From positions 6,155-70,154 of the forward strand of contig JAZDMG010000007.1 of the NCBI GenBank assembly GCA_043801165.1: DNA of 64,000 bases, in the 5' to 3' direction. Of this stretch, positions 18,754 to 48,632 are shown one piece after another (position 1 is the stretch's first letter; the number at the start of each line of letters is the position of its first letter). The notes below the pieces were generated by a model. It was given only the letters and a program-made list of their open reading frames with translations, did no database searches and had not been told where the DNA came from. This DNA comes from an archaeon. Lineage in GTDB: Archaea; Nanobdellota; Nanobdellia; Woesearchaeales; SM23-78. Made by a program: the position numbers and the translations under genes.

Positions 18754-21700
18754 ATGAAGAGAGCAAAAGCCAGTAGGAAAGCGAAAAACAAGATGAGAGC
18801 ATGGCCAGAGAGGCGAGCCACGGTAGCGACAGCCAGGCCCATGCTATTCACAGCCATATGCATCATGCTGTTCCTGCTCAGCAGCGCTCCTCTCCTAGGA
18901 GAGAATCCGCCTACTGAAAAAAGGCTCTACCTATCTGTGGAGAAGCCAAGCTTCAGCATAGGCGAGTCCATCATGCTGATAATAACAGGTGATTCATTAA
19001 GTGATTATGAGATGGTACTGAGCTCTGCCAGCACCAATTACAAGTATAATGGAGAGCTGAAGAACAACATCGCATTCTATCCGCGAGAGGCAGGTGTGCA
19101 TCGCGCAGAGCTCATAAGCAAGCTGACAAAGCAGCCGATCGATTCATTGGAGTTCATGGTAGGATCATCTGCTGCTTCAGAATCACAAGCCAACACATCC
19201 GACCAGGACCAAACATCAAATCCTAGTGGCACGGCTTCAGAATCAGGTGAATCAGAGCCTTCAGGCTCGCCAGTGATTGTCCTGAACAAGCAGAGATATT
19301 TATTGGGAGAGCAGGTGAATGTCAGCATACGCATAGCCCTTGAAGAGCAGCAGGATTATAGGCTCTACTACGAATACGAAGGCCTTAGCCAGAGATACAT
19401 GGGTGACTTCTCAGCCATAAGCTTTGCTCCCCTTGGGATCGGAACCCATCATCTGGTGCTGAAGAGCAGCGATAATGCTATAATCGCACAGTCGAGTTTC
19501 GAAGTGTCAGAGGCGATCGCATCTATCAAGAATGATATCAAAGATGAAAAAGACAATGCTAGTGCTAAAATCCAAGGAGATGAAGCATTCTTGAAGAGGG
19601 TGCTGAATGTCCGCGACAGCTCAGGAACAAAGGAAACCTTCTATGTCAGTATGATTAGAAAAGCACCTGCAGAATCACCAATCGAACCAACAACGAAAAA
19701 AACAGGGCTGAGCGGAAATGGAACTGACCTGACTAACAGCACAAGAAACAACAGCATCGACCAGAACACGACCGCGGCCTATGACCTGTATGACCTGGAG
19801 CTGACCATCACAGGAAAAGCGGTCAGCAGGATAACACTCAACAACCTAAGGCTGAGCAATGATTCCAACATATCGATGGGCATCGATGATGTTCCTTTGG
19901 AAAAGGCAAGCTCAGCCAAGATGAGAGCAGTCAAGGCATTCGCCATAGACCCATCACATCTTGATTTCACAGACGGCTCAGCCACATTGATAGCCACAGG
20001 TAGAGAGCTGTGGAAATGCAAGGATTGGTCTTTCGATAGCCAGAGCTGTGCAGGCAGCTGGAGTAAAGTGATGGAACTGACTCCAGGCCAGGAATATAGC
20101 ATAGCATTGAGCCCTGAGGACCCTGGCTACGCAGAGACTGGAGTGGCCAGCATCAACACAAGGAAGTCAACATATCATCCTGGCGAGAGCGCCGAGATAA
20201 TAATAGTGGTGCTTGATAACCAAGGCCGTCTGACCTCTGATGCTAGCGTCGAGCTGGCGATAACATTGCCGGACAACCAAAGCAATCTTTTTTCCACATC
20301 AGCAGGCACCTTGTCTTCAGAGCAGAAAGGAATCTTCACAGCAACATTCGACCAGACAGGCAAGGAAGGCGATTACATAATGGTTGTCAATGCTCTTGGA
20401 GCGAATGTGAACAGCACAATGATATCATCATTCACAGTGAGCTCCTACTATGAGTTCGACATCATCAGGGATGCTCCTGTGGTGATCGACCCGTGGCAAG
20501 GGCCATTCACATCAAGGATAAGATTAATATCATTTGTTGCCAACTCATCAAACCAGAGCTTTGACCTCGTGGAAGTGATGCCTGCCAGTTTCAACATAAC
20601 AGACTCTGGCGGAGGGACAGAGAGCATCGCCAACAACACAAAACAGCTGAGATGGTACGGTCTCACGAATGATTCTGAGGTAAGCTACTCTGTGCAGGCG
20701 CCGCTGGTGACGCCAGAGCTCTACAATTTAGGGCAGAGCATGGTGATATACGATGCGATCGGATCAAATGGGACGAACGGGTCAAGCGCGACTTTCACAG
20801 AGGCCAGGCCCTGGTACCTGGCAGCAGACCCTGCATTCGTAGGATCATTCTTCATGCTCTGGGATAATACTTCAAATGCCCCTTCAGGATGGACCTGCGT
20901 CTCATGCGTCGCAGGAGATCCTTTCTACAGCAGGCTCATAAGGGGAGACCCTAGCTATGGAAGCACAGGAGGCCAAACAGGCCACAGCCACACAATCGCC
21001 TACCAAAGTGAGACTCTTGGAGATCCTATAATCTACGCTAGCTCAGGAGGAACTTCAGGAGGGGCAAGGGCTTCAGGAGGCCACACTCATGAGGGGATAG
21101 ACGCAACCACAACAGGGACTGCTTCCAACTTCCCTAGCTTCAGGCAGCTGAAGGTGATAGCTTACACGAACGGTCTTCCCTCAGCGATACCCACAGGAGC
21201 AATAGGAATATTCAACACAACAAGCCTGCCGGCTGATTGGACCAGATATTCTGCTGAAGATGGCTATTTCATCCTTGGAAATGGGACATCAAATGTGACC
21301 GGCGGTTCAAACAACCACAGCCATTCCATCAGCATAACCACATCAACATCATCAGGCACCAGCACCGCTAGAACCGGAGGGACACAATTACCTGTCGGAG
21401 CCAGTGGTCACACCCATACAGCGACAGGAAACACCAACACGACTGAGAACATACCTTTATATGTTGACGTCATACTTGCAAAGGCAACAACAAACACAGC
21501 GATACCCTATGGCCAGGGATTCATAGGAATGTTCAACAGCAGCGTAGGAGATGGCTGGGTCAACATGTCCCAGAGCGGCCAGCCATTCTACCATATGATG
21601 ATAAGAGCCAATAATGTCTCTGGAGCAACTGGCGGCAATAACCAGAGCACACATGCCAACACAACGGTGACAACCGGAGCGCCAGGCACTGGCAATACAA

Positions 21701-24700
21701 GATCAGGCAGCGGCAGGAACTTCTCAGATCCGAGTCACACGCACGAAATAGGGATATCATTCAACACAACCAGCCACCTGCCGTCGTATATCAATGTGGT
21801 ATTCGGCTATGCGAACAGCACGCCGCCCTCAGTTCCGACGATAAACACAACCCAATGCTATAGCCCAGGATTCGGCTGGATAAATTGCACCACCTTGGCT
21901 TTCAACAGCAACTTCACCAGCGTAAGGACAAGATGCACATCTAACAATGGCGTGCTGATAAATAATGTTTCATTCATATTCATCAATCAGGAAGACAACA
22001 AGACATTCTTCAACGTGACAACGACAGACAACAGCACAGGCTACTGGACCTATGACATAGACGACATACTGATCCAAGACTCTGGAAGCATGAATCTCTC
22101 AGTCATATGCCGGGATAGCATGGAATCGAACCAGACCATCTCATGGTCAATCCCCTGGGGAACATTATCATCCTCATTGATAAACCCGACAAGCAACAGG
22201 AATGTATCACAGAACAAGTTCTTCAACTTCACAGCAAGGATCGCCTGCAGCGGAGGAGAATGCGGCTACATCAAGGCAACATTAGACCCTGAGACCATGT
22301 GGTGGAACAGGAGCTGGAAGAACAGGAAACAGGTCTACATCAACACCACCAACCTGCTGCCAGCAAGATATACCGTCGAGACCAACATGAGCACCACAGG
22401 CAACGGGTTCCTGAGCAACAACAATGATGTAAGGGTCGTGTACTGGAACGGCACAGCGAACATAGAGATTGACAGGCACATACTGAACAACAACACAGCG
22501 AACGCAACCATATTCTTCGCGATACAGAGCAACATATCAGCAGGCACGACAAACAACACCGCCTATTATATCTACTACAATAATTCTGCCGCATCGACGC
22601 CTCCAAAGAACCTAAGCAGGATATTAGTCTATGCAGCAGACTTCGAGAGCGGCACCGAATCATGGACCGTGGCAGGCCAATCATACACCTGGGAGCGGGC
22701 CAGCGACCTTCTTGGAGCAAGCGTCACTGGGTGCAGAGGAAGTGATTGTGACGAACCAGCAAGAGCCATCTCAGGCGATTACGCCTGGGGGACCAACATC
22801 GGAGGGATATATCCAAACGACGCAAGCACTTGGGGATATGTGCAATCGACAGCGATGGACCTGTCAGCATACGCCGCAGAGAATCTCACTCTTTCATACT
22901 TCAAGGCATGGCAGCTTGAGGGAGCAAGCTATGATTACGCGAGGATAAGGATATCGAATAGCTCAGCATTCACGACAGCGACCACCATAGAGACATTCAA
23001 CCCAGCAACAGGCTGCGACGCAACATGCCCATACTATGATTGGTCAACCACCAAAGCCAACGTAAGCGCATACGACACAAACCTGTACATAAGATTTGAA
23101 ATGCAGACAGATACTGGCTGGCAATGGACAGGATTATACTTTGATTTCATAACAGTGAGGATAAACACCTCCAGCGCCCCAGCGGTAGGAATTGGCGCTG
23201 CCCAGAGCGAAATCAAAGGAGCTGTACCTGTGGGTTCAGGGACGCCATTCTACACGACAAATGCAAACCCGATGTATGCTGTGGACAATGACTGCCTCGG
23301 CAACATGATGCCTGGAAGCAGTTGCAACACGACCTGGATGGTGAACGCAACAGGCAACATAAATTCCACCTGGACCTTCTTCGCGACCTATGAGTCAGAG
23401 AACTACTCATCCTACGTCAGCCAATCAGCCACTTCGTCAATCAACATAACTATCCTTGATATGGTGCCCCCATCGATCAGCAACATCCAGTGCTATAAAA
23501 TAGGGACTGGATGGACTGCCTGCTCGAATATCCTCTTCAACAGCAACCTGACGGATATAAGGGCGCAGTGCAGTTCTGGAGAAGGAGCGAACATAACCAA
23601 TGTGACATTCACCCTCTCGAACAAGGATGACAACAAGACAATATTTGATGTGGTGACAACTGACAACAGCACAGGCTACTGGTACTATAACCTGACCGAT
23701 ACGATAATACAGGATTCCGGAGACATGAACCTTTCGGTGACCTGCACAGACGCAGATGGCGGTGTTGGTGTGAGCAAAGTGGATTGGTCGATACCTTGGG
23801 GAACCCTCTCGGCCTTTTTGATCAATCCGACAACAAACATCAATGTCACCAGGAATAGGTTCTTCAACTTCACAGCAAAGATCAACTGCTCAGACGGAGA
23901 GTGCGGTTCGATAAATGCCAGCGCCTTGCGGAATACCAGCATCTTCGGCTCTGGCAAGGACGGAGCATTGACCGTGAGCGCGGCCAACAGCATCATAAAC
24001 AACTACACCTATCTCACAGCGAACGCATCAAACGGCACCACAGTGATAAGTGTCAACTCTGCCGCAGAGCTATCTGTCGGAGATGAGATATTGATAATCC
24101 AGATGCAGAATTTCAGCGGCGGGACTGCTGGAGTATATGAATTCGCCACCATCATATCAATAAGCAGCAACAACCTGACTCTGAACTCAAGCATACAGAA
24201 CACCTATCGTATTGGAACGCTCAATACGACCAACGCGACCGCGACCCAGGTGGTAAGAGTGCCGCAGTACTCCAACCTCACCATCAATACAGGAGCTTCA
24301 GTGACTGCGCCGGCATGGAACGGCTATCGTGGAGGTATCGTGGCCTTCAAAGCGACAGGAATCGTGAATGTCAGCGGAATCATCAACACTTCTAACCTCG
24401 GCTACAAGGGTGGGCTCGGGATAGCAGCATCAGGAGGGCCTCAGTATGCATACCAAGGTGAATCATTCAACGGGCTCGGATCTGCTGCCAATGCAGCAAA
24501 CCTTGGAGGCGGAGGAGGAGGATACAACGATCTTGGAGGAGGAGGTCTTTCTGGCGCGTCCGGAGGAGGAGGAGGCTATGCCAGCGTAGGAGACGCAGGA
24601 GACACATCTCCGGAAGGGCAAAGCGGAGGCTCTGGAGGGATTACCTATGGGAATTCCCAGCTATCACAGCTGCATCTTGGTTCTGGAGGAGCAGGAGGAG

Positions 24701-27700
24701 GATCTGACAACAATGGCGCAATTGACGGCACTGACGGAACCAGGGGTGGAGGAATCATATTCATAAAAGCCAACAGCCTCATCGTATCAGGAGCCATAGA
24801 ATCAGACGGCCAGGAGAGCACAGGAGCCTCCAACCAGTGGGCTGGTTCTGGAGGAGCAGGGTCAGGAGGGTCGGTCTATCTCTCGTCGAACAGCATGAGC
24901 ATAGGATCCTCACTGGTCTCATCTACAGGTGGCATCGGTGGATGCGGAGATACTGGGCGGTGCGGAGGAGATGGAGGTAATGGGAGGATACGCCTAGATT
25001 TCATCGGCATCTCAGGATCTCCTGCATCATCAGCAGCCTACAATGGGACATTGAATGAGACAATATTCCTGCTCATAAGCACAGCCTCGGGCGATACACC
25101 TCTGTTCACCAATGCCGCTAATCCTATGTATGCTACCAACAACAGCTGCCTCGGCAACATGATAGCAGGAAGAAGCTGCAACACGACCTGGTCAATAAAC
25201 GCGACCGGAGAGACATATTCTTCATGGATGATATTCGCATCCTACAGCTCGCTCAACCTATCATGGCTCAAGGTGAACACCAGCAGGGTGAACATCACCA
25301 TAATCCCTAATCTGGCGCCAAGTGTCACATCAGTGGTGATAGTCCCTGACAGGCCAAGGTTTGATCAGGACCTTAACTGCACATTCACAGTATCAGACCC
25401 TAACCTCGAGGATTCACTATCAGCGAACGTAAGCTGGTTCAGGGATGGGGCGCTGGTGTCATCAGCTCTTGTCAGTGTGACCCAGAATGTGTCAAAGGTC
25501 GAGACATTGGGCTATGGAAATCTCACAGCTGGTGAGGTGTGGTGGTGTGGGATCACGCCATCCGATGGCCTTCTATCCGGAAACCAGGTCAATTCCTCCA
25601 ATGTGACCATTCTCGCATCAATGCCTCCAGATGTAAGCAACATCGAATGCCAGAGGAACAGGGCGATCTGGGTGAGCTGCCCCAGCATGGCCTTCAACCA
25701 AAACATCACTGCCGTGAGGGCGATATGCTCAGACACAGATGGATACGTAGTCAATGCAACATTCAGCCTTTCCAACATAGAGGATTCCAAGACATTCTTT
25801 ACAGACACAACAACCGACAACAGCAGCGGCTATTTCACGCTTGACAATCCAGACATCACCATAACCGATTCAGGGATCTTCAACCTAAGCGTCAGCTGCA
25901 TGGATAATAATGACACCGAGGGTTATGGAAACTCAACCTGGCTGGTGCCCTGGGGAACCCTGATCGCGTCCCTTGTGGATCCGTCGGCTGATGCCAATGT
26001 GACAAGGAACCGGTTCTTCAACTTCACCGCCATGATCAACTGCTCCGGAGGAGAATGCGGGTACATAAACGCGACGCTAGACCCGACCAACTGGTGGAAC
26101 TCATCATGGGGCTATAGAATCACAATAGCACTTTCTGAGATGGCCAATCGGAATCTCAGCCTCTACCAATTCAAAGTAAACATCAGCACCCAGGCTCTCA
26201 TAGGCGCCGGAAAGATGAATGCTGACTGCAGCGACATAAGATTCATCAGCAACACATCAAAGCAGTTAGACTACTGGATAGAATCAGGATGCAACACGAC
26301 AGGCACAATAATTTGGGTCGTGAATAACCTGAGCGCGAAAGCGAATACGACCATGAACATGTATTATGGGAATCCCGATGCCGGCGCCCAAAGCAACGCG
26401 ACCAAAACCATGTTCCTATATGAGGACATGAGCAGTGCACCTGGCGGATCGCTCACTGGAAACGCCACCTATATCGACGCGACATGGGGCGTCAGGCTGA
26501 CCGTTGCAGCCAATGACCTGTTGGGATACCTATATTACATAAAGAATCCAGGCGTAGGATTCTACGGATACTATGAGACCTGGGCTGGCGGAGGCTCAGG
26601 AGCAGACGCCACCTGGATCGGGGTGCATGACAACTCAGCAAGCTCAGCAAGAGAGGACGTAGTTGATGGAGGCTATCACTTCACCGTAGATGAGTATGGG
26701 ACCAATGGAAATAACGGCAGAATCGCCTTCACCAAGAGCACAGTTGACAACGGAGCGCCAATCGCCTCCTGGACTAACAACAATCTTGACGACTCAGCCT
26801 GGCATACGCTAGAGGTTTATTTCTACAACAATGGCACAACCGCCAATGCAGAGCTCTATTATGACGGGGTCCTGAGAGTTAATGGAACCGACAGCTCTCC
26901 TCAGAGCACGAGCGGTAATTACATGAGCTTCGCAGGAAGGACAGGAGGAGAGACAAACCAGCACTACATCAGGAAGATAATAATAAGGAAATACGTTGAC
27001 CCGGAACCGACTGTGACACTTGGCGATGAAGTGCAGCAGACTAAGGGAATAATCCCCATGGGCAACGGCACACCGTTCTACACCATAACAGCCAACCCCA
27101 TGTATGCTGCCAACAACAGCTGCCTAGGCAACATGAACATGGCATCAGAAAACAGCTGCAACACAACATGGGAAGTAAATGCGACAGGCAACACAGGCAT
27201 CCCCTGGGAGTTCTTTGTGACCTACAGCTCGCTGAACTATTCAAGCTACGTAACCATAAACATCACCCGAAGAATAAATATAACTATTGTAAACAACACC
27301 GCACCCCGAGTGTCTGCCATCCTGTTGACTCCTGAATATCCCCTCCCGACAGAGGACCTCAACTGCACCTTCACAGTGTCTGATTCAAACCTCGGCGATT
27401 CTCTCAGCGCAAACATCACATGGTACCTGAACAACACAGCATACAGCTCTGTGAACTTGAGCGTAGGTAATGGAGTGTCTCAGTCAGTGATACTAGGCTT
27501 CGGCAACATCTCGTTGGGCCAAATCTGGCATTGCGGGGCCACTCCATCAGACGGAGAGGTCTTCGGAGCCCAGGTCAACTCATCGAACGTCACCGTAGTG
27601 CTCAGCAAGCCGCCAGTCATCAATCAGGTCCAATGCTACATCAACGGCTCGACATGGACCAACTGCTCAAAGCTAAGCTTCAAGTCAAACCTCTCTGGCG

Positions 27701-30700
27701 TGAGAGTCAACTGCACCACAAGCTACATGCCCATATGGAACGTCACAATCAACTTCACCAACACGCCAGATTCGACGCTCTTCTTCACCAACACCACCAA
27801 CATCAGCTCTGGCGGGTGGTGGACGGTATACAGGAATGTCACCATCAATGACTCAGGCGAGTTCGTCGTCGGAGTGACTTGCACCAACAATGAATCTGCG
27901 AAGGACACAGAGGCTGTGAACTGGACTGTGCCCTGGGGAAAGATAACCCTAACATTGATTAATCCTAATAGCGACGGCTATGTGGAATATGAGCGGTTCT
28001 TCAACTTCACAGCCCAGGTGAACTGCATCCTGGGCGAGTGCGGAGACATCAATGCCATGCTTGACCCTGAGACTGAAGAGACCAAGCAGCACATAGCATC
28101 TTTCCTGCCGACCAAGTACGAGATTAGAAAATCGGTCGCTGCTTTCCCAGAGCAATCGCCAGGCACAGAAACACCAAGCATGGAAACGAAAACAATGGCT
28201 TCTGCTGCCTATGCGGCCTATGCTACCTATGATGCTTCTGCTGGTGCAAAGACCGGCAATGGAGGGAACAGGGCGTATCCTGACGGTATGGTTACCATCA
28301 ACTCCATGAGGCCGAGCTATGACATCGGAGAGGCTGCTGAGCTGGTCGGGACAGTGCTTGACAGCAGGGGCAATTTTGTGCCGAGCGCTGACCTCCGCAT
28401 GATAATAACAAGCCCGAGCTCCCAGAGAAGCATCTTCACCTCATCTGACCTGAAGGAGCTGGCGCCGGGCCTCTACGAATTAACATATGACCTGTCCCGC
28501 GAATCAGGCATCGAGCCAGGCATCTATTCTGTCGAGTTCATCTCTGCAGGAGAGATTAAGGACAGCATGGGCACTGCCTTTGAGGTGAAGAACATCAAGG
28601 ATTGTTCAGGATTCGAGATAACTAGGGATGCTCCTTTCGCAGTCAATCCCTGGGCTGGAGCCGATGGTCCTTTCGACATCTCAATCACAGCGGCAAGGCG
28701 CGACAGTGCATTGCCTGAGAGGTTCACATTAACAGAGACAGTGCCGCTCGCGCTTGATATCATCGATTCAGGAGGAGCAGACCATTGGATCTCGGAGCAG
28801 GAGCAAAAGCAGTATCTGATATGGTCAGGCCTGGGCGACAACTCAAGGGTGAGCTATCGCGTGTCTGCTCCAAAGATATCCCCTGAACGTTATGGACTCA
28901 GGGCAGCCATCTCTGCAGGAGGAAAAACATTCAAGGAGCCAAGGAGCTGGTTCATCGCAGTTGATCCTGCCAGCTATTATTCTGCAAGCAATGACACTGT
29001 AGAATATTATATCTCAGCAGGGACCTATACCGGAGCTGATGGGGGAAGCTATGCGAACACCGCGGCAAAGGATTGTTCTGGCGGAACCTGCACACAATCA
29101 AACGCATGGGTGACTGGCTTCATCAACATGAACACGATAGATGTGACCTGCCGCCTTAATACATCTCTCATGTTCAACATCAGCAACATAAAATCTGAAT
29201 ACATAAATAACATCACCGTCAGCTGGGGCGGATGCTGGCACGGCGACCAGGTGCTGACCAACGACAGGTGTGACAACCTGACAAGGCCTGAGTTCAGCTC
29301 AGGGACAGGAGGCGGGACATTCGACATGTGGATGCAGCATAACACAACATTCGAGAGCATGAGCTGCATCGACACCGCAGGAGGTGAGTGCGGATCAGCT
29401 GATGAGATAAGCCTGGGGACAGCCACCACATCGCCTGCATGGGGGAACGCCCATGGATACAACACATTCACCTTCAGGAAGGCAGACCTTGACAGCAGCT
29501 ATGTGAACAATAGCATCATCACATTGCTCTGGAGGACCTGGGGAGCAGGAGTATGCGCCAATGCAGCCAATGATGAGGTGCTCTTCGCGCTTGATTACGC
29601 AAACCTGACGGTCAACTGGAACTACCTGATAAAGAACGGGTCGATGGTCTCCATAGTGGAAGGGTCTGATCCATTCTACACGGTCGATGCCAACCCGATG
29701 AACAAGACCAACAACAGCTGCCTCTCGGCGATGAGAGTAGGCGGTGGCGGCTGCAATGTCACATGGCGTGTGAACGCTACCGGAGGAATAAACACCACCC
29801 ACATATTCTATGTCATAGCGAACACCTCGGTGTATCCGACAACTGTGATGCCGAATGAGAGCATCCATATAATGCTTACCATAAGGGACACCTCAAAGCT
29901 TCCACCGACAGTCACCCTCAATTCGCCTGAGAATAATTTCGCCACCACCAACACGACAGTCATCTTCAACTGCTCGGCCACGGATAACAGCGGCCTGACC
30001 AACATGACCCTCTACATAAACGTAAGCGGAAGCTTTGAAGAGAACGGGACCAACGACATCGGAGGGGTGAGCAACAGCACGCTCTTCAACAGGACCTATT
30101 TCGAAGGAAGGTTCCTGTGGAACTGCAAGGCCATGGACATCGACAGCAATGAGCGGTTCGCCACCACCAACAGGACTCTCATAATAGACCATACCAGCCC
30201 CTACATAGTGCTGTCTTCTCCCCAGGATTCGGATAATTTCAGCAGCTCGAACGTAACATTCAGGTTCACTGTCTTCGACAATGTGGCCATGACCCTCAAC
30301 TGCAACATAACGATAGATGACTCTGTGCGCGACCTGAACTTCACAGTATATGCCGAAAGCCCGAACGCTCGGAACATATTCAACATATCGCAGGGAGATC
30401 ACTTCTGGAACGTCTCGTGCGCTGACAATGCCGGCAACTGGAACATCAGCGAGACAAGGAACTTCACCTTGCTCAACACCCCCCCGACAGTCGTCCTCCA
30501 GACAATGGATGGCTACACCACAAACTCAGGAGATGTGGAGCTGTTCTATCTTCCAAGCGACAACTCAAATATTGTGCTGGCAGACCTCTACATCAACGGG
30601 AGCTGGTACAGGAATGAGACCGTAGTGGATAATGGGATCACCAACTCATTCAGCCTATTCGGATTCAGCGAAGGAAGATACAATTGGACTGTGAATGTGA

Positions 30701-33700
30701 CCGATGACGGAGGATTCACCGCCCAGGCTCCTGCGAAATGGTTCATCATCGACAAGACTGGGCCTTCCATCAACCTGGCCTATCCTGATGACAATTACTC
30801 GACAAATTCAAGTTCGGCAGTGATAAACTTCACGGTCATCGATAACTATGACCAGACGCTCATCTGCATTATAATCGTGAACGGGACCAATGCCACCTCC
30901 TATTTCAGCGCCGGCAATAACACTCCCATATCAAAGACTGTCTACGGCCTGAAGGACGGGCTGAATTACTGGAATGTCAGCTGCACAGATGATGCTACCA
31001 ACACCAATGTAAGCGAGACCAGGCGCATCAATGTCAGCGCTCCCCCGACGGTGGTGCTTAACACTCCGGCAGACAACTACTCACAGGCCAGCGGCAACAT
31101 AAGCCTGAACTACACCCCGGCAGACAACGTGGGCCTGCTCAACTGCACCCTCATCCTGAACGGGCAGAGGAATCAGACCAACAGCACCATCAACAACACC
31201 GTGCAGAACCGCTTCTTCCTGACAAGCTTGCCATCAAGCGACTACAACTGGAGCATAAATTGCACTGACACTGCAGGGCTGGTTGGATACTCGACAACCA
31301 GGATATTCAGGATAGACTCAACAGCGCCCACCATCACCCTCAACCGGCCACAGAACAACGATACCGTATACGGAGGGTTCGCAATATTCAACTGGACAGC
31401 CTATGACAACCTAGACCCGGTGCTCATGTGTAATCTCACTCTCGACGGCGCATTGAATAAGACCAACATCCCGTCACCAAACGGGCAGTCGGTGAATGTC
31501 ACTGTCCTGATACCGAATGAGACCTCGCACCTATGGAACGTCACATGTGCAGATGACTCTGGCAACAGGAACACCAGCGAGATGTGGAACTTCAGCAGCG
31601 TAAATGCTCCTACGGTCACGCTCATATTCCCGAAAGCCAACGAGATACTCAACTTCTCACAGAACATAAATTTCACATACATACCTGGAAGCAGCAACTC
31701 GCTCTCGATAGCAAGACTTTTCCTGAACGGTAATCTAAACCAAACAACACCCAACCCAAACAGAAGCGTTGAGAACTATTTCTTCCTAAATCTCTCTGAC
31801 GGAATATACAATTGGAGCGTCAGCATAACAGACAACATGAGCCTCAACGGCTCAAGCGAGACAAGGTTCTTCAGGGTGGACTCTACTCCTCCGATCGTCA
31901 CCGTGATAACCCCATACCAAGGGCAGACCGTGAATGACAACGATGTCACATTCTCATTCAACGTGACAGACAACCTGGGAGGCTATGTCAACTGCACCAT
32001 ATATTTCGGAGGGGAGCCTGAGTGGAGCAACATCAGCACCTCGAGTGGCAGCACAATCACAAGGTACAAGACATTATTCGACGGAAGCTACAATTGGAGT
32101 GTCAACTGCACAGACGTGGCGAACAACACAAACGCATACCAGCTGATAAATTTCACCGTCGATGCGCCGCCCAACGTCACCATCAACTTCCCGCCGCCCA
32201 ACTACAGGACCAGGGACACCAACATATCATTCAACTACACCCCGCTGGACCCCATAGGATTCAACAACTGCTCGCTCTACATAAACGGCTCATGGATCCA
32301 GAACTCCAGCAACGTGGCAAGAAACGTCCCCAACTTCCTGAACACCACAGGACTGAACGAAGGAGCCTATATCTGGAACATAGAATGCTTTGACCAAGAG
32401 CCAGACTTTAACAACTACACGACCCCTCCACGCAACTTCACCATTGACCTGACAGGACCTAACATGTCGTTGCTGTATCCTGGGGCAGGAGACTACCTCA
32501 ACAGCAACACAGTGCAGTTCAACTGGACAGCGACTGATTATGCAGGAGTCAGCCTGAACTGCTCGCTGTTCATAAATGAAACATTCAACAGGTCATTGGC
32601 GCAGCAGTCAGGCAGCTATTTCACACCGACGGTCAACAACATGTCTGACGGGTCATATGATTGGTATGTGAACTGCAGCGATGACCTAAACAACTCAGCA
32701 TTGAGCGAGACAAGGGTTTTCACCATCAACAAAGCAGACCTTTACATAAATGACAGCAGGATAACATTCAACAACACCAACCCAGATGTCAACCAGACAA
32801 TAAACATAACCGCCAACGTGAGCAACATAGGAGGAATGCCAGCCTATAACGTCGTAGTCAGCTTCTGGGATGGCGATCCTGGCAGCGGAGGGACATGGAT
32901 AGGGAACAGCACTGCCACTGTCAACTACGCCAGCTCAGCAAGGTTCTCTGTGCTGTGGAACATCAGCGGAGCCATGCATACCATCTATGCCATAGCAGAT
33001 CCGGGAAGCCTCATTGCAGAGCTTGATGAGAGCAACAACAACGCAACAACAACGATATCTCCTCTGTACTCAACAATAACATATCCTGCTCAGAACATGA
33101 CATTCAATAGCAACAACGTGACTGTGAATTTCACGGTCTATGACTACAACGGCAGCACCCTCAGCTACACCCTATTCGCCAACGGGACAACCGTCGGGAG
33201 CGGATCAACGACAGATGGAGAACCACAATCTGTGCCTGTGACCATCAACGACGGGACCTGGATAATAAAAGTCGGAGTGACTGATGCGCTCGGAAGGAAG
33301 AAGAACAGCACAGGAGTCACGATATATGTAGACGGCACACCCCCATCCATAAGCTATTTCACGCCACCGACACCAATCAATAACTGGGTGCAGAGCAACA
33401 CAACGGTCACAATCAATGTCTCACACTATGATGTGCATCCTAATCAGATAATATTATACTGGCAGGGAGCAGCCAATGAAACCAGGACATATACAGGCAG
33501 CTTCTCAAACTTCACATTGTCAGGACTGACTGACGGGATATACAACTACTATGTCTGGCTCAACGATACCTACGGGCTATCAAACCAGACAGCAACACAG
33601 ATCGTCAGGATAGACCTATCAAATCCGGTGATAAATCTTGAGGCCCCAGCACCAGGAGCCACTGTCAACTCATCAGTGGTTGAGTTCGACTTCAATGTGA

Positions 33701-36700
33701 CCGACTCAAGCCAGTACGTCAACTGCTCGCTTTACATAAACGGAACTTTGAACAAGAGCAGGAGCAACCTCCTCACCAACACCCAGCAGTTCATAGTGCA
33801 GCAATTCAATGAGGGCACATATACATGGTCCATCAACTGCACAGACCAGCTTGGCAGGAGCAACATCTCTGACACCATATCTTTCACAGTGCCGACATTC
33901 AACCCTAACTGGACCAATAGGTGGTATGAGCAGTACAACACCAATGTCCTTAACACCACTGCGATGATCAACCTCATGCCTAGCAGGGACGGCGGAGAGA
34001 ACAGGGTCAACATATCTATACCAGCAGACTCATTGTACACCATGGCCATCGCATACTCTCCATACATCGCAGGCTATGGAGCGACTGTCCCTAACGGGAC
34101 CAATGTCAGCTTCAGCGGCCTCTTCAGCGTAGTGGATGTGAACGATATCATCGCAGGCTATGTTACCTGGAAGGTCTATCTCAGCAATGAATCAGGAGAT
34201 TTCCTGATAGCGCAGGTGGGAAATGATGACAACACAAACACAGGAGGGAACAAGCTTGATGCCAAGGACACAAGGATACTCCTCGGGGTAAGCATGATAA
34301 CCAACAGGAGCTGGTTATTCACTCCGACTGACCGTGTGAAGCTGGTGGTGAACATGTACAGCGACGACCGTGTAGTTGAGAGATATATCCACTACTGGGA
34401 TAATAGGGTAGAATCATGGGTCGACTTCAGCAATTTCTCAGTGATCGGAGCCATGAGCCTCAACATGACTGAACCGTCAACAGACATCACAGTGGCTCCT
34501 GACGAGACATTCAACCAGACATGCCTGGTCAACTGCACCTACGGGACATGCATCAACGTCTATGTATACGCGCAGAACAATGCGACCCTGCCGAATGAGA
34601 CTGGATGGAGCAACATGACCAACTCATCAGGGAACATCAGGCTGGCCGCAGGGCAGAGCAATGGCGTGTTCCTGAGCAATATCACAGGGCTCTCATACGT
34701 CAATTTCACCCTTAACGGCAGCGTAGCCTCGATAGATAATGTGAGGTGTTATGCAAAGAGCGACTACAACGATGCATATAGCATGTCCAGGCAGGTGAGC
34801 GTGGCAGACCTGATCCCTCCGAACGTGACTCTCACCAGCCCAAGGAACAGCACCTACTGGAACGCGGTCAACATGACATTCTATTTCAACACCACTGAGA
34901 ATGTTCAGCTCAGGAACTGCACCCTGCTGATAGATGGGAACGAGGTGACTACCAAGAACACCAGCGGCCTGGTGAGGATTGGAAGCAACAATCTCACAGC
35001 GATCGGCCTGGCTGAAGGATTATATAACTGGAGCGTCATATGCTCCGACATCAGCGGCAGCCAGGGCAACTCATCTGTGTGGTGGATAGGGATCGATAGG
35101 ACTGCGCCAGAGATAACGCTCAACTATCCTGCACCAGGGGACAACTTCCCAAACACGACAGTGATACTCAACTTCACGGCGACAGACAGCCTTGACCAAT
35201 CGCTGACCTGCAACCTGACATTGGATGGGAGCATCAACAGGAGCAACTTCGAAGCGCAGAACGGCACATGGACCAATGTGACAGTCTCTGGCTTGACTGA
35301 AGGGGCACACAGCTGGAATGTGACCTGCTGGGACAACGCAAGCAACACCAACACCAGCGAGACAAGGAGCTTCAGCACATTCATCTCTCCGAGATTGACC
35401 CTTGTCAGCCCATTGAACAACAGCATCAGCAACAACGCGACGCAGATGTTCCTCTTCAACGTCAGCGATGACACAGGGCTCACCAACTGCTCATTGCTGC
35501 TCAATGGCGTGGCCAACACAACCAAGACGACAGCTGATCTCACCAACAACGCCACCAACAACTTCACAGCGACAGGCATGAACGGGACCTATCTCTGGGC
35601 AGTCACATGCTTCGACAATACAACCCTGACGATGTCAAACACGACAGCACCATGGAACCTGACCATAGACCTTGAGCCGCCGATGCCAATAATAACAACA
35701 CCAAGCCTGAGCTGGTTCAACACAAGCTCTCCGACGATACAGTTCAACATAACAGACAATGTCGCCTACTCGATAAACTACACATTCTTTGTCAACGGTA
35801 CAGTGAACACCAATGGCTCGATGAACAACAACACCCCATCATCGGCGATATTGACAGGGCTGGTCCCTGATGGAGAATATGCCATCATGCTCCAGGCAGT
35901 TGACAGGGCCGGCAACATAGCCAACAGCACGACGATAACCATATACGTGGACACGGCCAAGCCAGGCATCAACCTGTCCTCTCCTGAAAACGGGCTGGAG
36001 ATCGACAGCACCAGCGTGAGATTCAATTTCACAGCCACAGACAACATGGCGAGCTACATGATGTGCAACCTGACTGTCAGTAACGGCATCAGGGAGGATA
36101 ACATCAATGCCAGCAGCGGAGCCCTGCAGAGCATATTCAAGAGCGGGTTCCTCTCAGGGACATACTTCTGGAATGTCAGCTGCATAGACCTAGCCAGGAA
36201 CAGGAACACAAGCGTGACCTGGAACTTCACCATCAACTCGCCAGACCTTATCATAAATTCAGGGAATATCTCGTTCAATGAGAGCACGACCGAGGAAGGA
36301 AAGAACATAACCATCTTCGCCAACGTGTATAACCAGGGAGGAACGCCTGCCTATAACGTGACTGTGCAGTTCTGGAGAGGGGATCCTGACGCGGGAGGGA
36401 CGCAGATCAACGGCAACAGGAGCGTCTCAATAATAAACGCGAATGATAATATCACCTTGAACATCACCTACCTGACGATCATAGGCAACAACAACATCTT
36501 TGTCGTGGTGGACCCGCCGACAGCCACCAACGGGTCGATTGTCGAGGAGGATGAGAGCAACAACAAGGCGAACAACTCATTGAGGGTTTCACTTTACCAT
36601 GTGTTCGCTGGCAACACGACAGGGATGATAAGGATCGAGAAGCAGAGCATAAACAACAGCCTGTACATCTGGAATGTCAGCAATTATACCGGGAGCAACA

Positions 36701-37149
36701 TATACGTGACAGACCTCGAGGCCAGCCCTAACTTCCTGAGGCTCCAGGCCATGGGAACCAACACAAGCAACACCTCAACCACAGGAGATTTCGCTGACAT
36801 CGACACAAAGCTCGGCACCACCAATTTCACTGACTCGATAAATATCACATACACAAGTAACGGAGCACCAAGGGCGACCAAAGCATTCACTGTGTTCAGC
36901 AAGACAATAAGCGATGTGCCGATAATAAACAGCACCAACAGCAGCACTTTCCAGACAGGGATCCTCTGGGACACCAACGATGGTGGAGTAGAATACAATG
37001 GGACCCAGGACATCATATTCATAACAGAGACAAACCAACAGCAGGAAGGGCTAAACGGAGTATATGACTTCGAGATAAAAGTGCCTGCCTTGCTCAGGAA
37101 CTACAACGCAGGAGGATCAAGCGTAGCATTTTACGCTGAGCTCAAATGA
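18754..37149 (+). CDS. Giant (6131 aa) mosaic extracellular protein / adhesin
   Basis: Uninterrupted 18,396-nt ORF; all antisense ORFs are short. N-terminal hydrophobic segment MLFTAICIMLFLLSSAPLLG. Internally repeated domains, detailed in the findings: MG/Ig-like modules, triple HxH repeat, four Cys-rich super-repeats, two DUF2341-like domains, a LamG-like and a MAM-like jelly roll, a Gly-rich beta-helix-like region, at least 18 tandem ~95-aa Ig-like repeats, and two CARDB-like domains. Extreme N-x-S/T density. Confidence 0.9.
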   Translation: MKRAKASRKAKNKMRAWPERRATVATARPMLFTAICIMLFLLSSAPLLGENPPTEKRLYLSVEKPSFSIGESIMLIITGDSLSDYEMVLSSASTNYKYNGELKNNIAFYPREAGVHRAELISKLTKQPIDSLEFMVGSSAASESQANTSDQDQTSNPSGTASESGESEPSGSPVIVLNKQRYLLGEQVNVSIRIALEEQQDYRLYYEYEGLSQRYMGDFSAISFAPLGIGTHHLVLKSSDNAIIAQSSFEVSEAIASIKNDIKDEKDNASAKIQGDEAFLKRVLNVRDSSGTKETFYVSMIRKAPAESPIEPTTKKTGLSGNGTDLTNSTRNNSIDQNTTAAYDLYDLELTITGKAVSRITLNNLRLSNDSNISMGIDDVPLEKASSAKMRAVKAFAIDPSHLDFTDGSATLIATGRELWKCKDWSFDSQSCAGSWSKVMELTPGQEYSIALSPEDPGYAETGVASINTRKSTYHPGESAEIIIVVLDNQGRLTSDASVELAITLPDNQSNLFSTSAGTLSSEQKGIFTATFDQTGKEGDYIMVVNALGANVNSTMISSFTVSSYYEFDIIRDAPVVIDPWQGPFTSRIRLISFVANSSNQSFDLVEVMPASFNITDSGGGTESIANNTKQLRWYGLTNDSEVSYSVQAPLVTPELYNLGQSMVIYDAIGSNGTNGSSATFTEARPWYLAADPAFVGSFFMLWDNTSNAPSGWTCVSCVAGDPFYSRLIRGDPSYGSTGGQTGHSHTIAYQSETLGDPIIYASSGGTSGGARASGGHTHEGIDATTTGTASNFPSFRQLKVIAYTNGLPSAIPTGAIGIFNTTSLPADWTRYSAEDGYFILGNGTSNVTGGSNNHSHSISITTSTSSGTSTARTGGTQLPVGASGHTHTATGNTNTTENIPLYVDVILAKATTNTAIPYGQGFIGMFNSSVGDGWVNMSQSGQPFYHMMIRANNVSGATGGNNQSTHANTTVTTGAPGTGNTRSGSGRNFSDPSHTHEIGISFNTTSHLPSYINVVFGYANSTPPSVPTINTTQCYSPGFGWINCTTLAFNSNFTSVRTRCTSNNGVLINNVSFIFINQEDNKTFFNVTTTDNSTGYWTYDIDDILIQDSGSMNLSVICRDSMESNQTISWSIPWGTLSSSLINPTSNRNVSQNKFFNFTARIACSGGECGYIKATLDPETMWWNRSWKNRKQVYINTTNLLPARYTVETNMSTTGNGFLSNNNDVRVVYWNGTANIEIDRHILNNNTANATIFFAIQSNISAGTTNNTAYYIYYNNSAASTPPKNLSRILVYAADFESGTESWTVAGQSYTWERASDLLGASVTGCRGSDCDEPARAISGDYAWGTNIGGIYPNDASTWGYVQSTAMDLSAYAAENLTLSYFKAWQLEGASYDYARIRISNSSAFTTATTIETFNPATGCDATCPYYDWSTTKANVSAYDTNLYIRFEMQTDTGWQWTGLYFDFITVRINTSSAPAVGIGAAQSEIKGAVPVGSGTPFYTTNANPMYAVDNDCLGNMMPGSSCNTTWMVNATGNINSTWTFFATYESENYSSYVSQSATSSINITILDMVPPSISNIQCYKIGTGWTACSNILFNSNLTDIRAQCSSGEGANITNVTFTLSNKDDNKTIFDVVTTDNSTGYWYYNLTDTIIQDSGDMNLSVTCTDADGGVGVSKVDWSIPWGTLSAFLINPTTNINVTRNRFFNFTAKINCSDGECGSINASALRNTSIFGSGKDGALTVSAANSIINNYTYLTANASNGTTVISVNSAAELSVGDEILIIQMQNFSGGTAGVYEFATIISISSNNLTLNSSIQNTYRIGTLNTTNATATQVVRVPQYSNLTINTGASVTAPAWNGYRGGIVAFKATGIVNVSGIINTSNLGYKGGLGIAASGGPQYAYQGESFNGLGSAANAANLGGGGGGYNDLGGGGLSGASGGGGGYASVGDAGDTSPEGQSGGSGGITYGNSQLSQLHLGSGGAGGGSDNNGAIDGTDGTRGGGIIFIKANSLIVSGAIESDGQESTGASNQWAGSGGAGSGGSVYLSSNSMSIGSSLVSSTGGIGGCGDTGRCGGDGGNGRIRLDFIGISGSPASSAAYNGTLNETIFLLISTASGDTPLFTNAANPMYATNNSCLGNMIAGRSCNTTWSINATGETYSSWMIFASYSSLNLSWLKVNTSRVNITIIPNLAPSVTSVVIVPDRPRFDQDLNCTFTVSDPNLEDSLSANVSWFRDGALVSSALVSVTQNVSKVETLGYGNLTAGEVWWCGITPSDGLLSGNQVNSSNVTILASMPPDVSNIECQRNRAIWVSCPSMAFNQNITAVRAICSDTDGYVVNATFSLSNIEDSKTFFTDTTTDNSSGYFTLDNPDITITDSGIFNLSVSCMDNNDTEGYGNSTWLVPWGTLIASLVDPSADANVTRNRFFNFTAMINCSGGECGYINATLDPTNWWNSSWGYRITIALSEMANRNLSLYQFKVNISTQALIGAGKMNADCSDIRFISNTSKQLDYWIESGCNTTGTIIWVVNNLSAKANTTMNMYYGNPDAGAQSNATKTMFLYEDMSSAPGGSLTGNATYIDATWGVRLTVAANDLLGYLYYIKNPGVGFYGYYETWAGGGSGADATWIGVHDNSASSAREDVVDGGYHFTVDEYGTNGNNGRIAFTKSTVDNGAPIASWTNNNLDDSAWHTLEVYFYNNGTTANAELYYDGVLRVNGTDSSPQSTSGNYMSFAGRTGGETNQHYIRKIIIRKYVDPEPTVTLGDEVQQTKGIIPMGNGTPFYTITANPMYAANNSCLGNMNMASENSCNTTWEVNATGNTGIPWEFFVTYSSLNYSSYVTINITRRINITIVNNTAPRVSAILLTPEYPLPTEDLNCTFTVSDSNLGDSLSANITWYLNNTAYSSVNLSVGNGVSQSVILGFGNISLGQIWHCGATPSDGEVFGAQVNSSNVTVVLSKPPVINQVQCYINGSTWTNCSKLSFKSNLSGVRVNCTTSYMPIWNVTINFTNTPDSTLFFTNTTNISSGGWWTVYRNVTINDSGEFVVGVTCTNNESAKDTEAVNWTVPWGKITLTLINPNSDGYVEYERFFNFTAQVNCILGECGDINAMLDPETEETKQHIASFLPTKYEIRKSVAAFPEQSPGTETPSMETKTMASAAYAAYATYDASAGAKTGNGGNRAYPDGMVTINSMRPSYDIGEAAELVGTVLDSRGNFVPSADLRMIITSPSSQRSIFTSSDLKELAPGLYELTYDLSRESGIEPGIYSVEFISAGEIKDSMGTAFEVKNIKDCSGFEITRDAPFAVNPWAGADGPFDISITAARRDSALPERFTLTETVPLALDIIDSGGADHWISEQEQKQYLIWSGLGDNSRVSYRVSAPKISPERYGLRAAISAGGKTFKEPRSWFIAVDPASYYSASNDTVEYYISAGTYTGADGGSYANTAAKDCSGGTCTQSNAWVTGFINMNTIDVTCRLNTSLMFNISNIKSEYINNITVSWGGCWHGDQVLTNDRCDNLTRPEFSSGTGGGTFDMWMQHNTTFESMSCIDTAGGECGSADEISLGTATTSPAWGNAHGYNTFTFRKADLDSSYVNNSIITLLWRTWGAGVCANAANDEVLFALDYANLTVNWNYLIKNGSMVSIVEGSDPFYTVDANPMNKTNNSCLSAMRVGGGGCNVTWRVNATGGINTTHIFYVIANTSVYPTTVMPNESIHIMLTIRDTSKLPPTVTLNSPENNFATTNTTVIFNCSATDNSGLTNMTLYINVSGSFEENGTNDIGGVSNSTLFNRTYFEGRFLWNCKAMDIDSNERFATTNRTLIIDHTSPYIVLSSPQDSDNFSSSNVTFRFTVFDNVAMTLNCNITIDDSVRDLNFTVYAESPNARNIFNISQGDHFWNVSCADNAGNWNISETRNFTLLNTPPTVVLQTMDGYTTNSGDVELFYLPSDNSNIVLADLYINGSWYRNETVVDNGITNSFSLFGFSEGRYNWTVNVTDDGGFTAQAPAKWFIIDKTGPSINLAYPDDNYSTNSSSAVINFTVIDNYDQTLICIIIVNGTNATSYFSAGNNTPISKTVYGLKDGLNYWNVSCTDDATNTNVSETRRINVSAPPTVVLNTPADNYSQASGNISLNYTPADNVGLLNCTLILNGQRNQTNSTINNTVQNRFFLTSLPSSDYNWSINCTDTAGLVGYSTTRIFRIDSTAPTITLNRPQNNDTVYGGFAIFNWTAYDNLDPVLMCNLTLDGALNKTNIPSPNGQSVNVTVLIPNETSHLWNVTCADDSGNRNTSEMWNFSSVNAPTVTLIFPKANEILNFSQNINFTYIPGSSNSLSIARLFLNGNLNQTTPNPNRSVENYFFLNLSDGIYNWSVSITDNMSLNGSSETRFFRVDSTPPIVTVITPYQGQTVNDNDVTFSFNVTDNLGGYVNCTIYFGGEPEWSNISTSSGSTITRYKTLFDGSYNWSVNCTDVANNTNAYQLINFTVDAPPNVTINFPPPNYRTRDTNISFNYTPLDPIGFNNCSLYINGSWIQNSSNVARNVPNFLNTTGLNEGAYIWNIECFDQEPDFNNYTTPPRNFTIDLTGPNMSLLYPGAGDYLNSNTVQFNWTATDYAGVSLNCSLFINETFNRSLAQQSGSYFTPTVNNMSDGSYDWYVNCSDDLNNSALSETRVFTINKADLYINDSRITFNNTNPDVNQTINITANVSNIGGMPAYNVVVSFWDGDPGSGGTWIGNSTATVNYASSARFSVLWNISGAMHTIYAIADPGSLIAELDESNNNATTTISPLYSTITYPAQNMTFNSNNVTVNFTVYDYNGSTLSYTLFANGTTVGSGSTTDGEPQSVPVTINDGTWIIKVGVTDALGRKKNSTGVTIYVDGTPPSISYFTPPTPINNWVQSNTTVTINVSHYDVHPNQIILYWQGAANETRTYTGSFSNFTLSGLTDGIYNYYVWLNDTYGLSNQTATQIVRIDLSNPVINLEAPAPGATVNSSVVEFDFNVTDSSQYVNCSLYINGTLNKSRSNLLTNTQQFIVQQFNEGTYTWSINCTDQLGRSNISDTISFTVPTFNPNWTNRWYEQYNTNVLNTTAMINLMPSRDGGENRVNISIPADSLYTMAIAYSPYIAGYGATVPNGTNVSFSGLFSVVDVNDIIAGYVTWKVYLSNESGDFLIAQVGNDDNTNTGGNKLDAKDTRILLGVSMITNRSWLFTPTDRVKLVVNMYSDDRVVERYIHYWDNRVESWVDFSNFSVIGAMSLNMTEPSTDITVAPDETFNQTCLVNCTYGTCINVYVYAQNNATLPNETGWSNMTNSSGNIRLAAGQSNGVFLSNITGLSYVNFTLNGSVASIDNVRCYAKSDYNDAYSMSRQVSVADLIPPNVTLTSPRNSTYWNAVNMTFYFNTTENVQLRNCTLLIDGNEVTTKNTSGLVRIGSNNLTAIGLAEGLYNWSVICSDISGSQGNSSVWWIGIDRTAPEITLNYPAPGDNFPNTTVILNFTATDSLDQSLTCNLTLDGSINRSNFEAQNGTWTNVTVSGLTEGAHSWNVTCWDNASNTNTSETRSFSTFISPRLTLVSPLNNSISNNATQMFLFNVSDDTGLTNCSLLLNGVANTTKTTADLTNNATNNFTATGMNGTYLWAVTCFDNTTLTMSNTTAPWNLTIDLEPPMPIITTPSLSWFNTSSPTIQFNITDNVAYSINYTFFVNGTVNTNGSMNNNTPSSAILTGLVPDGEYAIMLQAVDRAGNIANSTTITIYVDTAKPGINLSSPENGLEIDSTSVRFNFTATDNMASYMMCNLTVSNGIREDNINASSGALQSIFKSGFLSGTYFWNVSCIDLARNRNTSVTWNFTINSPDLIINSGNISFNESTTEEGKNITIFANVYNQGGTPAYNVTVQFWRGDPDAGGTQINGNRSVSIINANDNITLNITYLTIIGNNNIFVVVDPPTATNGSIVEEDESNNKANNSLRVSLYHVFAGNTTGMIRIEKQSINNSLYIWNVSNYTGSNIYVTDLEASPNFLRLQAMGTNTSNTSTTGDFADIDTKLGTTNFTDSINITYTSNGAPRATKAFTVFSKTISDVPIINSTNSSTFQTGILWDTNDGGVEYNGTQDIIFITETNQQQEGLNGVYDFEIKVPALLRNYNAGGSSVAFYAELK

Positions 37150-48621: not shown

Positions 48622-48632
48622 GAGGTGGACTC

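Follow-up and report, generated by a model that had tools for sequence, protein, structure and literature searches.

The window analysed here, a 64,000-nt stretch of an archaeal contig, contains a single open reading frame (ORF) of 18,396 nt that encodes a protein of 6,131 residues, referred to below as the giant. This ORF is a genuine gene. Sequence comparison places its product in a large family of DPANN proteins in which an N-terminal head and a C-terminal domain (CTD) are conserved, while the stalk between them evolves freely. The giant is probably a very long glycosylated surface fibre of a DPANN archaeon, which would act as a long-range adhesin or tether.

The ORF (18754-37149, plus strand) starts with ATG, has its sole stop codon at the end and fills 28.7% of the window. 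These values agree with the preliminary description of the sequence, which reported an uninterrupted frame covering about 29% of the window and only short competing ORFs; the longest ORF overlapping the gene on the other five frames is 169 aa. NCBI lists an identical protein, encoded on a contig of 236,897 bp, as MFH0869533.1, "MAG: DUF2341 domain-containing protein [archaeon]". The sequence derives from a short-read metagenome-assembled genome (MAG) and the 90% identity cluster of the giant is a singleton, which would be compatible with an assembly chimera, a collapsed-repeat artefact or a decaying pseudogene. However, an open frame of 18.4 kb is not explicable by chance, and the GC content and GC3 of the gene are those of the neighbouring genes. 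The best match between internal DNA repeats reaches 81% identity over 67 nt, Tandem Repeats Finder detects no tandem DNA repeat in the gene, and the copies of its composite module are 65-81% identical at the DNA level. The internal repeats are old, and their divergence makes repeat collapse or expansion in a short-read assembly unlikely. Additionally, an exhaustive HMMER search retrieves an orthologue of 6,061 aa (P0138) that is collinear over the full length of the giant with 72-82% identity. This orthologue is located on a 242-kb contig from a separate sample (locus L040; ENA ERZ27248074), with a homologue of the small gene p197 upstream and a NEW3 homologue followed by che genes downstream, as in the window. 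Repeat divergence and an orthologue from a separate sample answer the concern about assembly artefacts that had been raised earlier, and the reading as a chimera or pseudogene is effectively refuted already.

The composition and topology of the giant are those predicted for an extracellular glycoprotein. Thr, Ser and Asn each account for approximately 10.7-10.9% of the residues, and the protein is acidic (D+E 8.5% versus K+R 4.9%). As the preliminary description had noted, the density of N-x-S/T sequons is very high (351 observed versus 135.6 ± 10 expected from residue shuffles, z = 21.5), and Cys pairs recur at regular spacings. Many of the 88 Cys residues are paired, at distances of approximately 39 aa in the Ig-like repeats and approximately 10 aa in the larger repeated modules. 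Strong sequon enrichment is typical of archaeal N-glycoproteins. Among the other proteins of the window (Table 1), a comparable excess is observed for NEW3_1426 (z = 12), NEW3_1296 (z = 8.5) and PKD1036 (z = 4.9), and the membrane ATPase HerA1318 carries 12 sequons in its ectodomain versus 2 in its cytoplasmic part. The same shuffle test reveals no excess in CheA, MCP, the KaiC-like proteins or the metabolic enzymes of the window; the excess is restricted to predicted exported proteins and the HerA1318 ectodomain.

The N-terminus of the giant is predicted to be a Sec-type signal peptide or signal anchor, and a comparable hydrophobic segment is present in the homologues whose N-terminus is captured, which account for the great majority of the 39 loci described below. 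This segment (residues 24-42) is the only strong hydrophobic segment of the protein, and no transmembrane (TM) segment follows residue 42. The last 120 residues are hydrophilic, with a Kyte-Doolittle mean that never exceeds 0.58, so that the single N-terminal hydrophobic segment and the missing C-terminal anchor of the earlier account both hold. Known types of surface protein were also considered and rejected. An archaeosortase substrate of the PGF-CTERM type does not fit a protein that has no C-terminal hydrophobic segment and whose sole PGF lies at residue 1038, and the LPXTG motif of sortase-anchored proteins is not present. An RTX adhesin of a type 1 secretion system (T1SS) is rejected on the basis of a single chance GGxGxD at residue 2613 and no RTX match in Pfam; the archaeal cell, which lacks an outer membrane, also counts against it. 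The giant contains no C[GL]EQ thioester motif, no credible P-loop or P-loop domain match, no coiled coil and, by Pfam, no enzymatic domain.

The head of the giant comprises two repeats of approximately 100 aa, a Cys-loop domain and beta-sandwiches that resemble macroglobulin (MG) domains, for which the Pfam match (MG2) is weak. An AlphaFold2 model of residues 330-713, computed from a 12-sequence alignment, is all-beta with a mean pLDDT of 79.6, and its best Foldseek matches in the PDB are MG domains of complement C3/C5 and of bacterial alpha-2-macroglobulin (E ~1e-7, TM-score ~0.25). The likeness to macroglobulins lies at the level of the beta-sandwich fold only. Consecutive MG-like beta-sandwiches are common to the head and to alpha-2-macroglobulin and C3/C5, whereas the thioester motif, the bait region and the TED/CUB domains of the latter are absent from the giant.

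The region between the head and the C-terminus is a mosaic of repeats. Each composite module consists of an Ig-like domain, an element of approximately 80 aa and a block of approximately 150 aa, and a weak InhA-like MAM match is located in the same region (residues 1365-1473). A CARDB domain (residues 4661-4765) lies inside the first Ig-like array. The C-terminal half contains 18 copies of the Ig-like repeat of approximately 94 aa and the composite modules another 4, which gives 22 in total, and iterative hidden Markov model (HMM) searches return 22-27 copies depending on the seed. The ~150-aa block occurs four times, the ~80-aa element five times, the ~110-aa repeat three times, the ~290-aa macroglobulin-like block twice, CARDB twice and DUF2341 once, in addition to several unique stretches. 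The mosaic proposed in the preliminary description is therefore real; its figure of "at least ten different domain types" is a plausible estimate rather than a rigorous count, whereas its maximum of 18 copies is slightly too low. The Pfam families of the giant are exclusively beta-sandwich families of the adhesion type (Big_13, Big_7, CARDB, DUF2341 and MG2). A Pfam search at E≤1 over eight unassigned stretches yields DUF2341 alone, and a sequence search of the PDB with both halves of the protein yields nothing beyond one CARDB-like nuclear magnetic resonance structure. DUF2341 covers 72 of the 6,131 residues, and the database name consequently tells almost nothing about the giant. At the C-terminus, the second CARDB domain is well folded in the AlphaFold2 model and is followed by the CTD, which ends in ...YDFEIKVPALLRNY....VAFYAELK-COOH and whose profile matches no entry in Pfam or the PDB.

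Both ends of the giant recur in other genomes. A pattern derived from a 101-aa alignment of the head motif was scanned over one genome per GTDB species, and 39 loci were obtained, in each of which the motif lies inside a very long ORF (680 to >4,800 aa); many of these ORFs run off the contig. The motif is usually located 280-490 residues from a signal-like N-terminus, and within the first ~150-1,400 residues across the family. Nearly all of the loci are labelled Woesearchaeota, Nanoarchaeota/Nanoarchaeia, Pacearchaeota, Aenigmatarchaeota or Micrarchaeota. Head queries in a word-indexed protein search returned only 6-7 partial homologues, which indicates that such giants are poorly represented in that protein set. 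For the other end, the last 340 residues (5792-6131), which span the final part of the last Ig-like repeat, the CARDB domain and the CTD, were compared by HMMER with 1.84 billion cluster representatives. This search yielded 1,794 representatives at E<1e-3, of which 467 fall below E = 1e-30, and the proteins reach 7,246 aa; each representative stands for a 50%-identity cluster, and the family comprises hundreds of them. Exactly one CTD is present in 146 of the best 150 representatives, and it ends no more than 3 residues from the C-terminus in 144 of these 146. The head is also present in 48 of the 68 CTD-bearing representatives among the best 150 that begin with Met and have a length of 2,000 aa or more.

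In the complete homologues, the N-terminal head aligns with that of the giant and the middle differs; in L006, L021, L022, L030 and L039, the last ~400 residues align end to end with 36-42% identity. A CTD that is nearly always terminal, a common head and a variable middle define a family with fixed ends and a variable stalk. The giant, with its N-terminal hydrophobic segment, head motif and single terminal CTD, is a member of this family. Contrary to the earlier suggestion, the combination of domains is therefore not unusual, and only the stalk is individual. The homologues are essentially confined to DPANN MAGs, and by sequence the source MAG appears closest to Woesearchaeota/Nanoarchaeota. 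Cultivated members of DPANN are episymbionts (PMC10266531, PMC11329633). In the open-access literature, no paper was found on the head/CTD family, the paralogy of p252 described below or the HerA-type gene cluster, nor was any found that pairs DUF87 with DPANN; Ig-rich giant surface proteins of DPANN are already known in outline from the SPEARE proteins, which are compared below.

Two further observations concern the homologues. L030, L034 and L039 contain two or three head/CTD genes in tandem (in L030, giants of >2,898 aa and 2,817 aa), followed by stand-alone CTD genes similar to p252. Additionally, some homologues carry unexpected labels (Nitrosarchaeum sp., "bacterium", Candidatus Paceibacterota and uncultured Methanosarcinales; P0010, P0021, P0074 and P0132, and L001, L005, L010, L011, L019 and L031), mostly on short contigs or in automated bins. 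These labels likely result from mis-binning, with transfer between episymbionts as the alternative.

A free-standing copy of the CTD is encoded in the window itself. The CTD family profile matches p252 (hmmsearch E = 2.6e-6) and its homologues in L030, L034 and L039 (down to 2e-10), hhalign places the CTD on the very C-terminus of p252 with 94% probability, and both proteins share the ending ...YDFE...FY.E[IL]x, which together identify p252 as such a copy. In light of this paralogy, the giant could be an adhesin at the tip of a thin filament polymerised from p252-like subunits, in which the CTD would serve as a "pilin-like" joining domain. Such a model would account for secreted stand-alone CTDs with the same end motif beside giants and for the one CTD per giant, always in terminal position. 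It also recalls donor-strand filaments, such as the Sulfolobus "threads" and the bundling pili of Pyrobaculum, and chaperone-usher tip adhesins, in that a small secreted protein is homologous to the terminal domain of a large adhesin-like protein and, in the case of the filaments, in that the proteins are N-glycosylated. However, p252 homologues are detected in only 4 of 41 loci, the structure of the CTD is not predicted (pLDDT ~30), and beyond the CTD paralogy the model draws on analogy. We consider it distinctly improbable.

The observations above fit the reading as a long surface fibre. The sequon excess, the signal-type N-terminus, the exclusively beta-sandwich Pfam families, the all-beta head and the confinement to DPANN all support it, as do the conserved head and CTD, the stand-alone p252, the glycoprotein neighbours and the intact gene reproduced in a second sample. 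The earlier suggestion of an adhesin-like surface protein of an episymbiotic archaeon is consistent with the signal, the all-beta string of beads, the sequons and the DPANN homologues, and adhesion would be the most likely function. The giant would be exported by Sec via its N-terminal signal sequence, would then be heavily N-glycosylated and would fold into approximately sixty beta-sandwich beads, with an MG-like head, a lineage-specific stalk and the terminal CARDB and CTD. If extended, at an estimated 4 nm or so per Ig-like bead, the chain would reach a couple of hundred nanometres, a length comparable with the size of a DPANN cell. Such a fibre could tether the cell over a long range to a host cell or a surface. 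By analogy with giant repeat adhesins, the conserved ends would be the functional ends: the CTD would fix the fibre to the envelope partners p252, PKD1036 and NEW3_1426, and the stalk would set the reach and provide antigenic variety. The adhesive function, the choice of the anchored end and the role proposed for the neighbouring ATPase are inferred. The CTD is favoured as the cell-proximal end, with the MG-like head distal, because the CTD leaves the translocon last, has the stand-alone paralogue p252 and is accompanied by TM-anchored glycoproteins.

Several points weigh against the fibre. Both termini are conserved, and the fibre could point the other way, with the head next to the cell and the CTD at the far end. 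No recognised anchor was found in the giant (TM, PGF-CTERM and LPXTG were looked for), so that its retention on the cell is an assumption, and in the AlphaFold2 model of the C-terminal 300 residues, the CTD has a pLDDT of approximately 30 and its fold is not predicted. The episymbiotic lifestyle of the source organism is deduced from its relatives only, and the full che operon downstream would also suit a free-swimming cell. Additionally, the upstream ATPase block described below is not located beside the closest orthologue, P0138 in L040, which indicates that the ATPase is not obligatorily linked to the giant.

A comparison with bacterial giant adhesins (wall-anchored proteins of Gram-positive species, such as Ebh/SasG; the RTX proteins LapA, SiiE and MpIBP; Giant1-5 of Apilactobacillus, PMC12863079) reveals the same general plan: a stalk of Ig-like beads of variable length, conserved terminal modules, an N-terminal export signal and a location in clusters of surface genes. 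The giant differs in that it is archaeal, is enriched in sequons, carries other terminal domains and lacks an LPXTG or RTX/T1SS signal. A role as a structural protein of the envelope or surface layer (S-layer), or as a polysaccharide binder for substrate capture, may be suggested by the DUF2341, CARDB and weak MAM matches in the giant, which are modules of a lectin-like or carbohydrate-associated kind, and by the NPCBM-associated domains of its neighbours; archaeal S-layer proteins, too, are typically heavily glycosylated and contain Ig folds (bioRxiv 10.1101/2023.10.27.564410). The length of 6,131 aa, however, is several-fold above that of archaeal S-layer proteins (bioRxiv 10.1101/2023.10.27.564410, and general knowledge), and the TM-anchored neighbours of 1,000-1,400 aa are better candidates for such a role. 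No glycoside hydrolase or lyase domain is detected, and the stalk is highly variable among relatives, unlike lattice-forming proteins, which leaves this role highly improbable.

All genes between 8.0 and 51.5 kb of the window lie on the plus strand. The stop codon of p197 is located 1 nt before the ATG of the giant and NEW3_1426 starts 48 nt after its end, and the giant is translationally coupled or co-oriented with both. The order PKD1036-HerA1318-p161-p375-p197-giant is collinear in L001, L005, L012, L015, L017, L018, L020 and L026, as determined by tblastn and clustering, and is partial in L004 and L007. A second type of context, found in seven loci, consists of secreted and membrane glycoproteins only, including a PKD1036 homologue, and contains no ATPase. 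PKD1036 is the most widespread co-occurring neighbour (14 loci), and in both types of context the neighbours are overwhelmingly membrane or secreted glycoproteins. No annotation was obtained for the p197 family, whose sequence is possibly that of a winged-helix protein. The p197 gene is preceded by an AT-rich spacer of 335 nt (17824-18158), which contains TATA-like runs (TTTATAAATAATAT) and is likely the promoter of a p197-giant-NEW3 transcription unit.

HerA1318 consists of a TM segment (residues 26-44), an ectodomain of approximately 560 aa (~45-610, CarboxypepD_reg-like), a second TM segment (610-628) and a cytoplasmic ATPase that ends in two DUF5752-like modules. The ATPase domain has >750 homologues, in forms of ~780 aa and ~1,190 aa, and is >50% identical across Woese-, Nano- and Pacearchaeota. 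Its P-loop is weakly similar to those of CedD, TraD and TraC/VirB4, and homologues with TrwB-type coupling-protein domains exist. A role of the window ATPases in a defence system was rejected, since PADLOC reports generic HerA/P-loop similarity only. The DUF5752-like module, of ~80-100 aa, occurs twice at the C-terminus of HerA1318, in both KaiC-like ATPases of the window and in membrane proteins beside giants (window 13808-15877, 55037-57004 and 58563-59657; L008, L030 and L039), and looks like a shared cytoplasmic docking domain on the basis of this distribution.

These neighbours invite a comparison with the SPEARE giants of Nanohaloarchaeota (Hamm et al. 2019, PMC6642349; re-analysed in PMC10266531), in which a signal peptide, Ig arrays, a TM segment, a VirB4/TraG-like ATPase and a coiled coil are all fused in one chain (PMC10266531). 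The two systems, which are compared here by architecture and description, have in common the DPANN origin, the size (5,000-9,400 aa), the N-terminal Sec signal, the long Ig-like arrays, the presumed host contact and the association with a P-loop ATPase of the VirB4/TraG/HerA class and with a coiled coil. They differ in that the SPEARE chain itself includes the TM segment, ATPase and coiled coil at its C-terminus, whereas the giant has neither TM segment nor ATPase and the ATPase and coiled-coil genes are separate, 0.9-6.8 kb upstream, and missing beside the closest orthologue. The head, the CTD and the p252 paralogue are not described for SPEARE.

The giant could accordingly be the external arm of an ATP-driven apparatus for cell-cell contact and transfer, a SPEARE split into separate genes. 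HerA1318 with its ectodomain, p161, p375 and the DUF5752-type docking modules would make up its base in the membrane and cytoplasm; the giant would dock to the host, and DNA, proteins or metabolites would be moved. The collinear gene order in approximately ten DPANN genomes argues for this model, as do a KaiC-type ATPase module that occupies the same slot in L004 and abuts the giant in L014 and L022, the DUF5752-like module common to ATPases and membrane proteins of the giant loci, and the similarity of HerA1318 and its homologues to CedD, TraD, TraC/VirB4 and TrwB-type proteins. The nanohaloarchaeal giants, which unite equivalent parts in one chain, have been proposed as secretion devices (PMC10266531). 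However, L040 has no ATPase block at this position, seven loci of the second type contain no ATPase at all, the ATPase family (>750 matches) extends far beyond the vicinity of giants and may serve another core function, and no channel-forming component was identified. Because the linkage of the ATPase is facultative, this model is attractive yet unproven, and we regard it as an unlikely possibility. The predicted archaeal secretion system with arCOG01314, a MoxR ATPase and vWA proteins (Makarova 2015; PMC5898192) was rejected as a context, since DUF4350, the MoxR/GvpN AAA+ ATPase and vWA are absent by Pfam among the ORFs of the window.

Downstream of the giant, NEW3_1426 is sequon-rich and 83% identical to its homologue in L040, and L040 keeps the order giant-NEW3-CheB-CheA-CheY-CheY-CheC-CheD. 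In L021 and L022, CheY-like genes are located beside a KaiC module next to the giants. The adjacency to che genes, to which the preliminary description drew attention, is thus real and reproducible; the informative neighbours, however, are mainly those of the upstream cluster, and the che operon is treated here as context and is not assigned to the system of the giant. Chemotaxis is not mentioned in the open-access genomics papers on Woesearchaeota that were consulted. Further downstream, a second paralogous surface-protein module comprises p171 (54475-54990), a paralogue of p197; KaiC655, with DUF5752 modules; p497, a membrane coiled-coil protein; KaiC364; and NEW3_1296, a TM-anchored NEW3 glycoprotein of 1,296 aa. 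The same module adjoins a giant homologue in L004, L014 and L022.

A broader reading would unite the giant, p252, HerA1318, the coiled-coil proteins and the DUF5752-type modules in an undescribed, DPANN-wide, ATP-powered organelle of host contact that is wired to chemotaxis genes in this lineage. The fibre would be assembled or anchored by CTD-CTD contacts, possibly of a donor-strand-like kind; the organelle would be the functional equivalent of a split SPEARE; and the che-type operon would control its deployment, instead of or besides swimming. We hold this reading to be decidedly unlikely and retain the long-range tether as the favoured one.

Table 1. Features of the giant gene and its surroundings (window coordinates; aa, residues of the giant).
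Feature	Coordinates	Strand	Basis or remark
PKD1036: PKD/Big_13 glycoprotein, signal peptide, C-terminal TM anchor	8066-11176	+	Pfam, hydropathy
p252: small, secreted, sequon-rich	11157-11915	+	CTD profile, hhalign
HerA1318: membrane DUF87/HerA_C (FtsK/HerA/VirB4-type) ATPase	11921-15877	+	Pfam, hydropathy
p161 and p375: charged coiled-coil cytoplasmic proteins	15901-17823	+	conserved between ATPase and p197
p197: small cytoplasmic protein	18159-18752	+	directly upstream of giant in 10 other loci and L040
Giant: basic N-region and ~20-aa hydrophobic segment, aa 24-42, then LLG/ENPP	18754-18900	+	hydropathy
Giant: conserved N-terminal head, aa 26-713	18829-20892	+	30-50% identity to N-termini of giant ORFs at 39 DPANN loci
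Giant: best-conserved head motif ELWKCKDW.F..Q.C.G.W.K...L.PGQ.Y......PEDPGYAE, aa ~415-470	19996-20163	+	alignments
Giant: three ~110-aa tandem repeats, aa ~700-1045	20851-21888	+	self-comparison/HMM
Giant: four composite modules, interleaved with unique stretches, aa ~1027-3125	21832-28128	+	Pfam, self-comparison, HMM
Giant: DUF2341 (PF10102), single, aa 2491-2562	26224-26439	+	Pfam E = 2e-18
Giant: second MG-like block, aa 3120-3425, matching head aa 420-710	28111-29028	+	self-comparison
Giant: first Ig-like array, 13 Big_13/Big_7-type ~94-aa repeats, aa 3724-5056	29923-33921	+	Pfam, HMM
Giant: second Ig-like array, 5 repeats, aa 5362-5837	34837-36264	+	Pfam, HMM
Giant: CARDB of conserved C-terminal module, aa 5829-5940	36238-36573	+	Pfam E = 9e-8
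Giant: CTD, ~195 aa, aa 5937-6131	36562-37146	+	family profile E = 6.7e-80
NEW3_1426: 1,426 aa, signal peptide, NPCBM-associated (NEW3) domain, C-terminal TM	37198-41478	+	Pfam, hydropathy
che operon: CheB, CheA, two CheY, CheC/X, REC-CheD, CheR, MCP, CheW, CheC	41590-50968	+	Pfam
Second paralogous surface-protein module	54475-63586	+	Pfam, tblastn, hydropathy

The remainder of the window contains several features that are separate from the giant. A minus-strand ORF of 426 aa (41565-42845) was rejected as a gene, as it is the antisense shadow of CheB; its 81% "identity" in L040 results from the conservation of the DNA. An AT-rich island (51675-54188, minus strand; GC 0.28 versus ~0.48 elsewhere) encodes ORFs of 571 aa and 173 aa, neither of which has a Pfam or PADLOC match; lying between the che operon and the KaiC module, it may be an insertion of foreign DNA. 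An AAA_14/DUF4143 ATPase at 358-2615 is a match (E = 2e-97) to PDC-S01, a candidate defence family in PADLOC; it adjoins an rve-type integrase that looks like an insertion sequence element. Scans of the window for Rfam families and tRNAs gave no hit and hence no taxonomic marker gene.

DPANN account for a large share of archaeal diversity. To our knowledge, all cultivated DPANN depend on physical contact with a host, and the contact molecules are known for a few lineages only. The label "DUF2341 domain-containing protein" hides a coherent family of giants, and the locus described here defines this widespread family by its markers: the head motif, the CTD and the free-standing CTD paralogue. 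Together with the recurrent set of neighbours, these markers offer a way to find equivalent genes in any DPANN genome and represent concrete experimental targets for the study of DPANN host contact. Additionally, the conserved adjacency to che genes in a Woesearchaeota-like genome suggests host-seeking behaviour.

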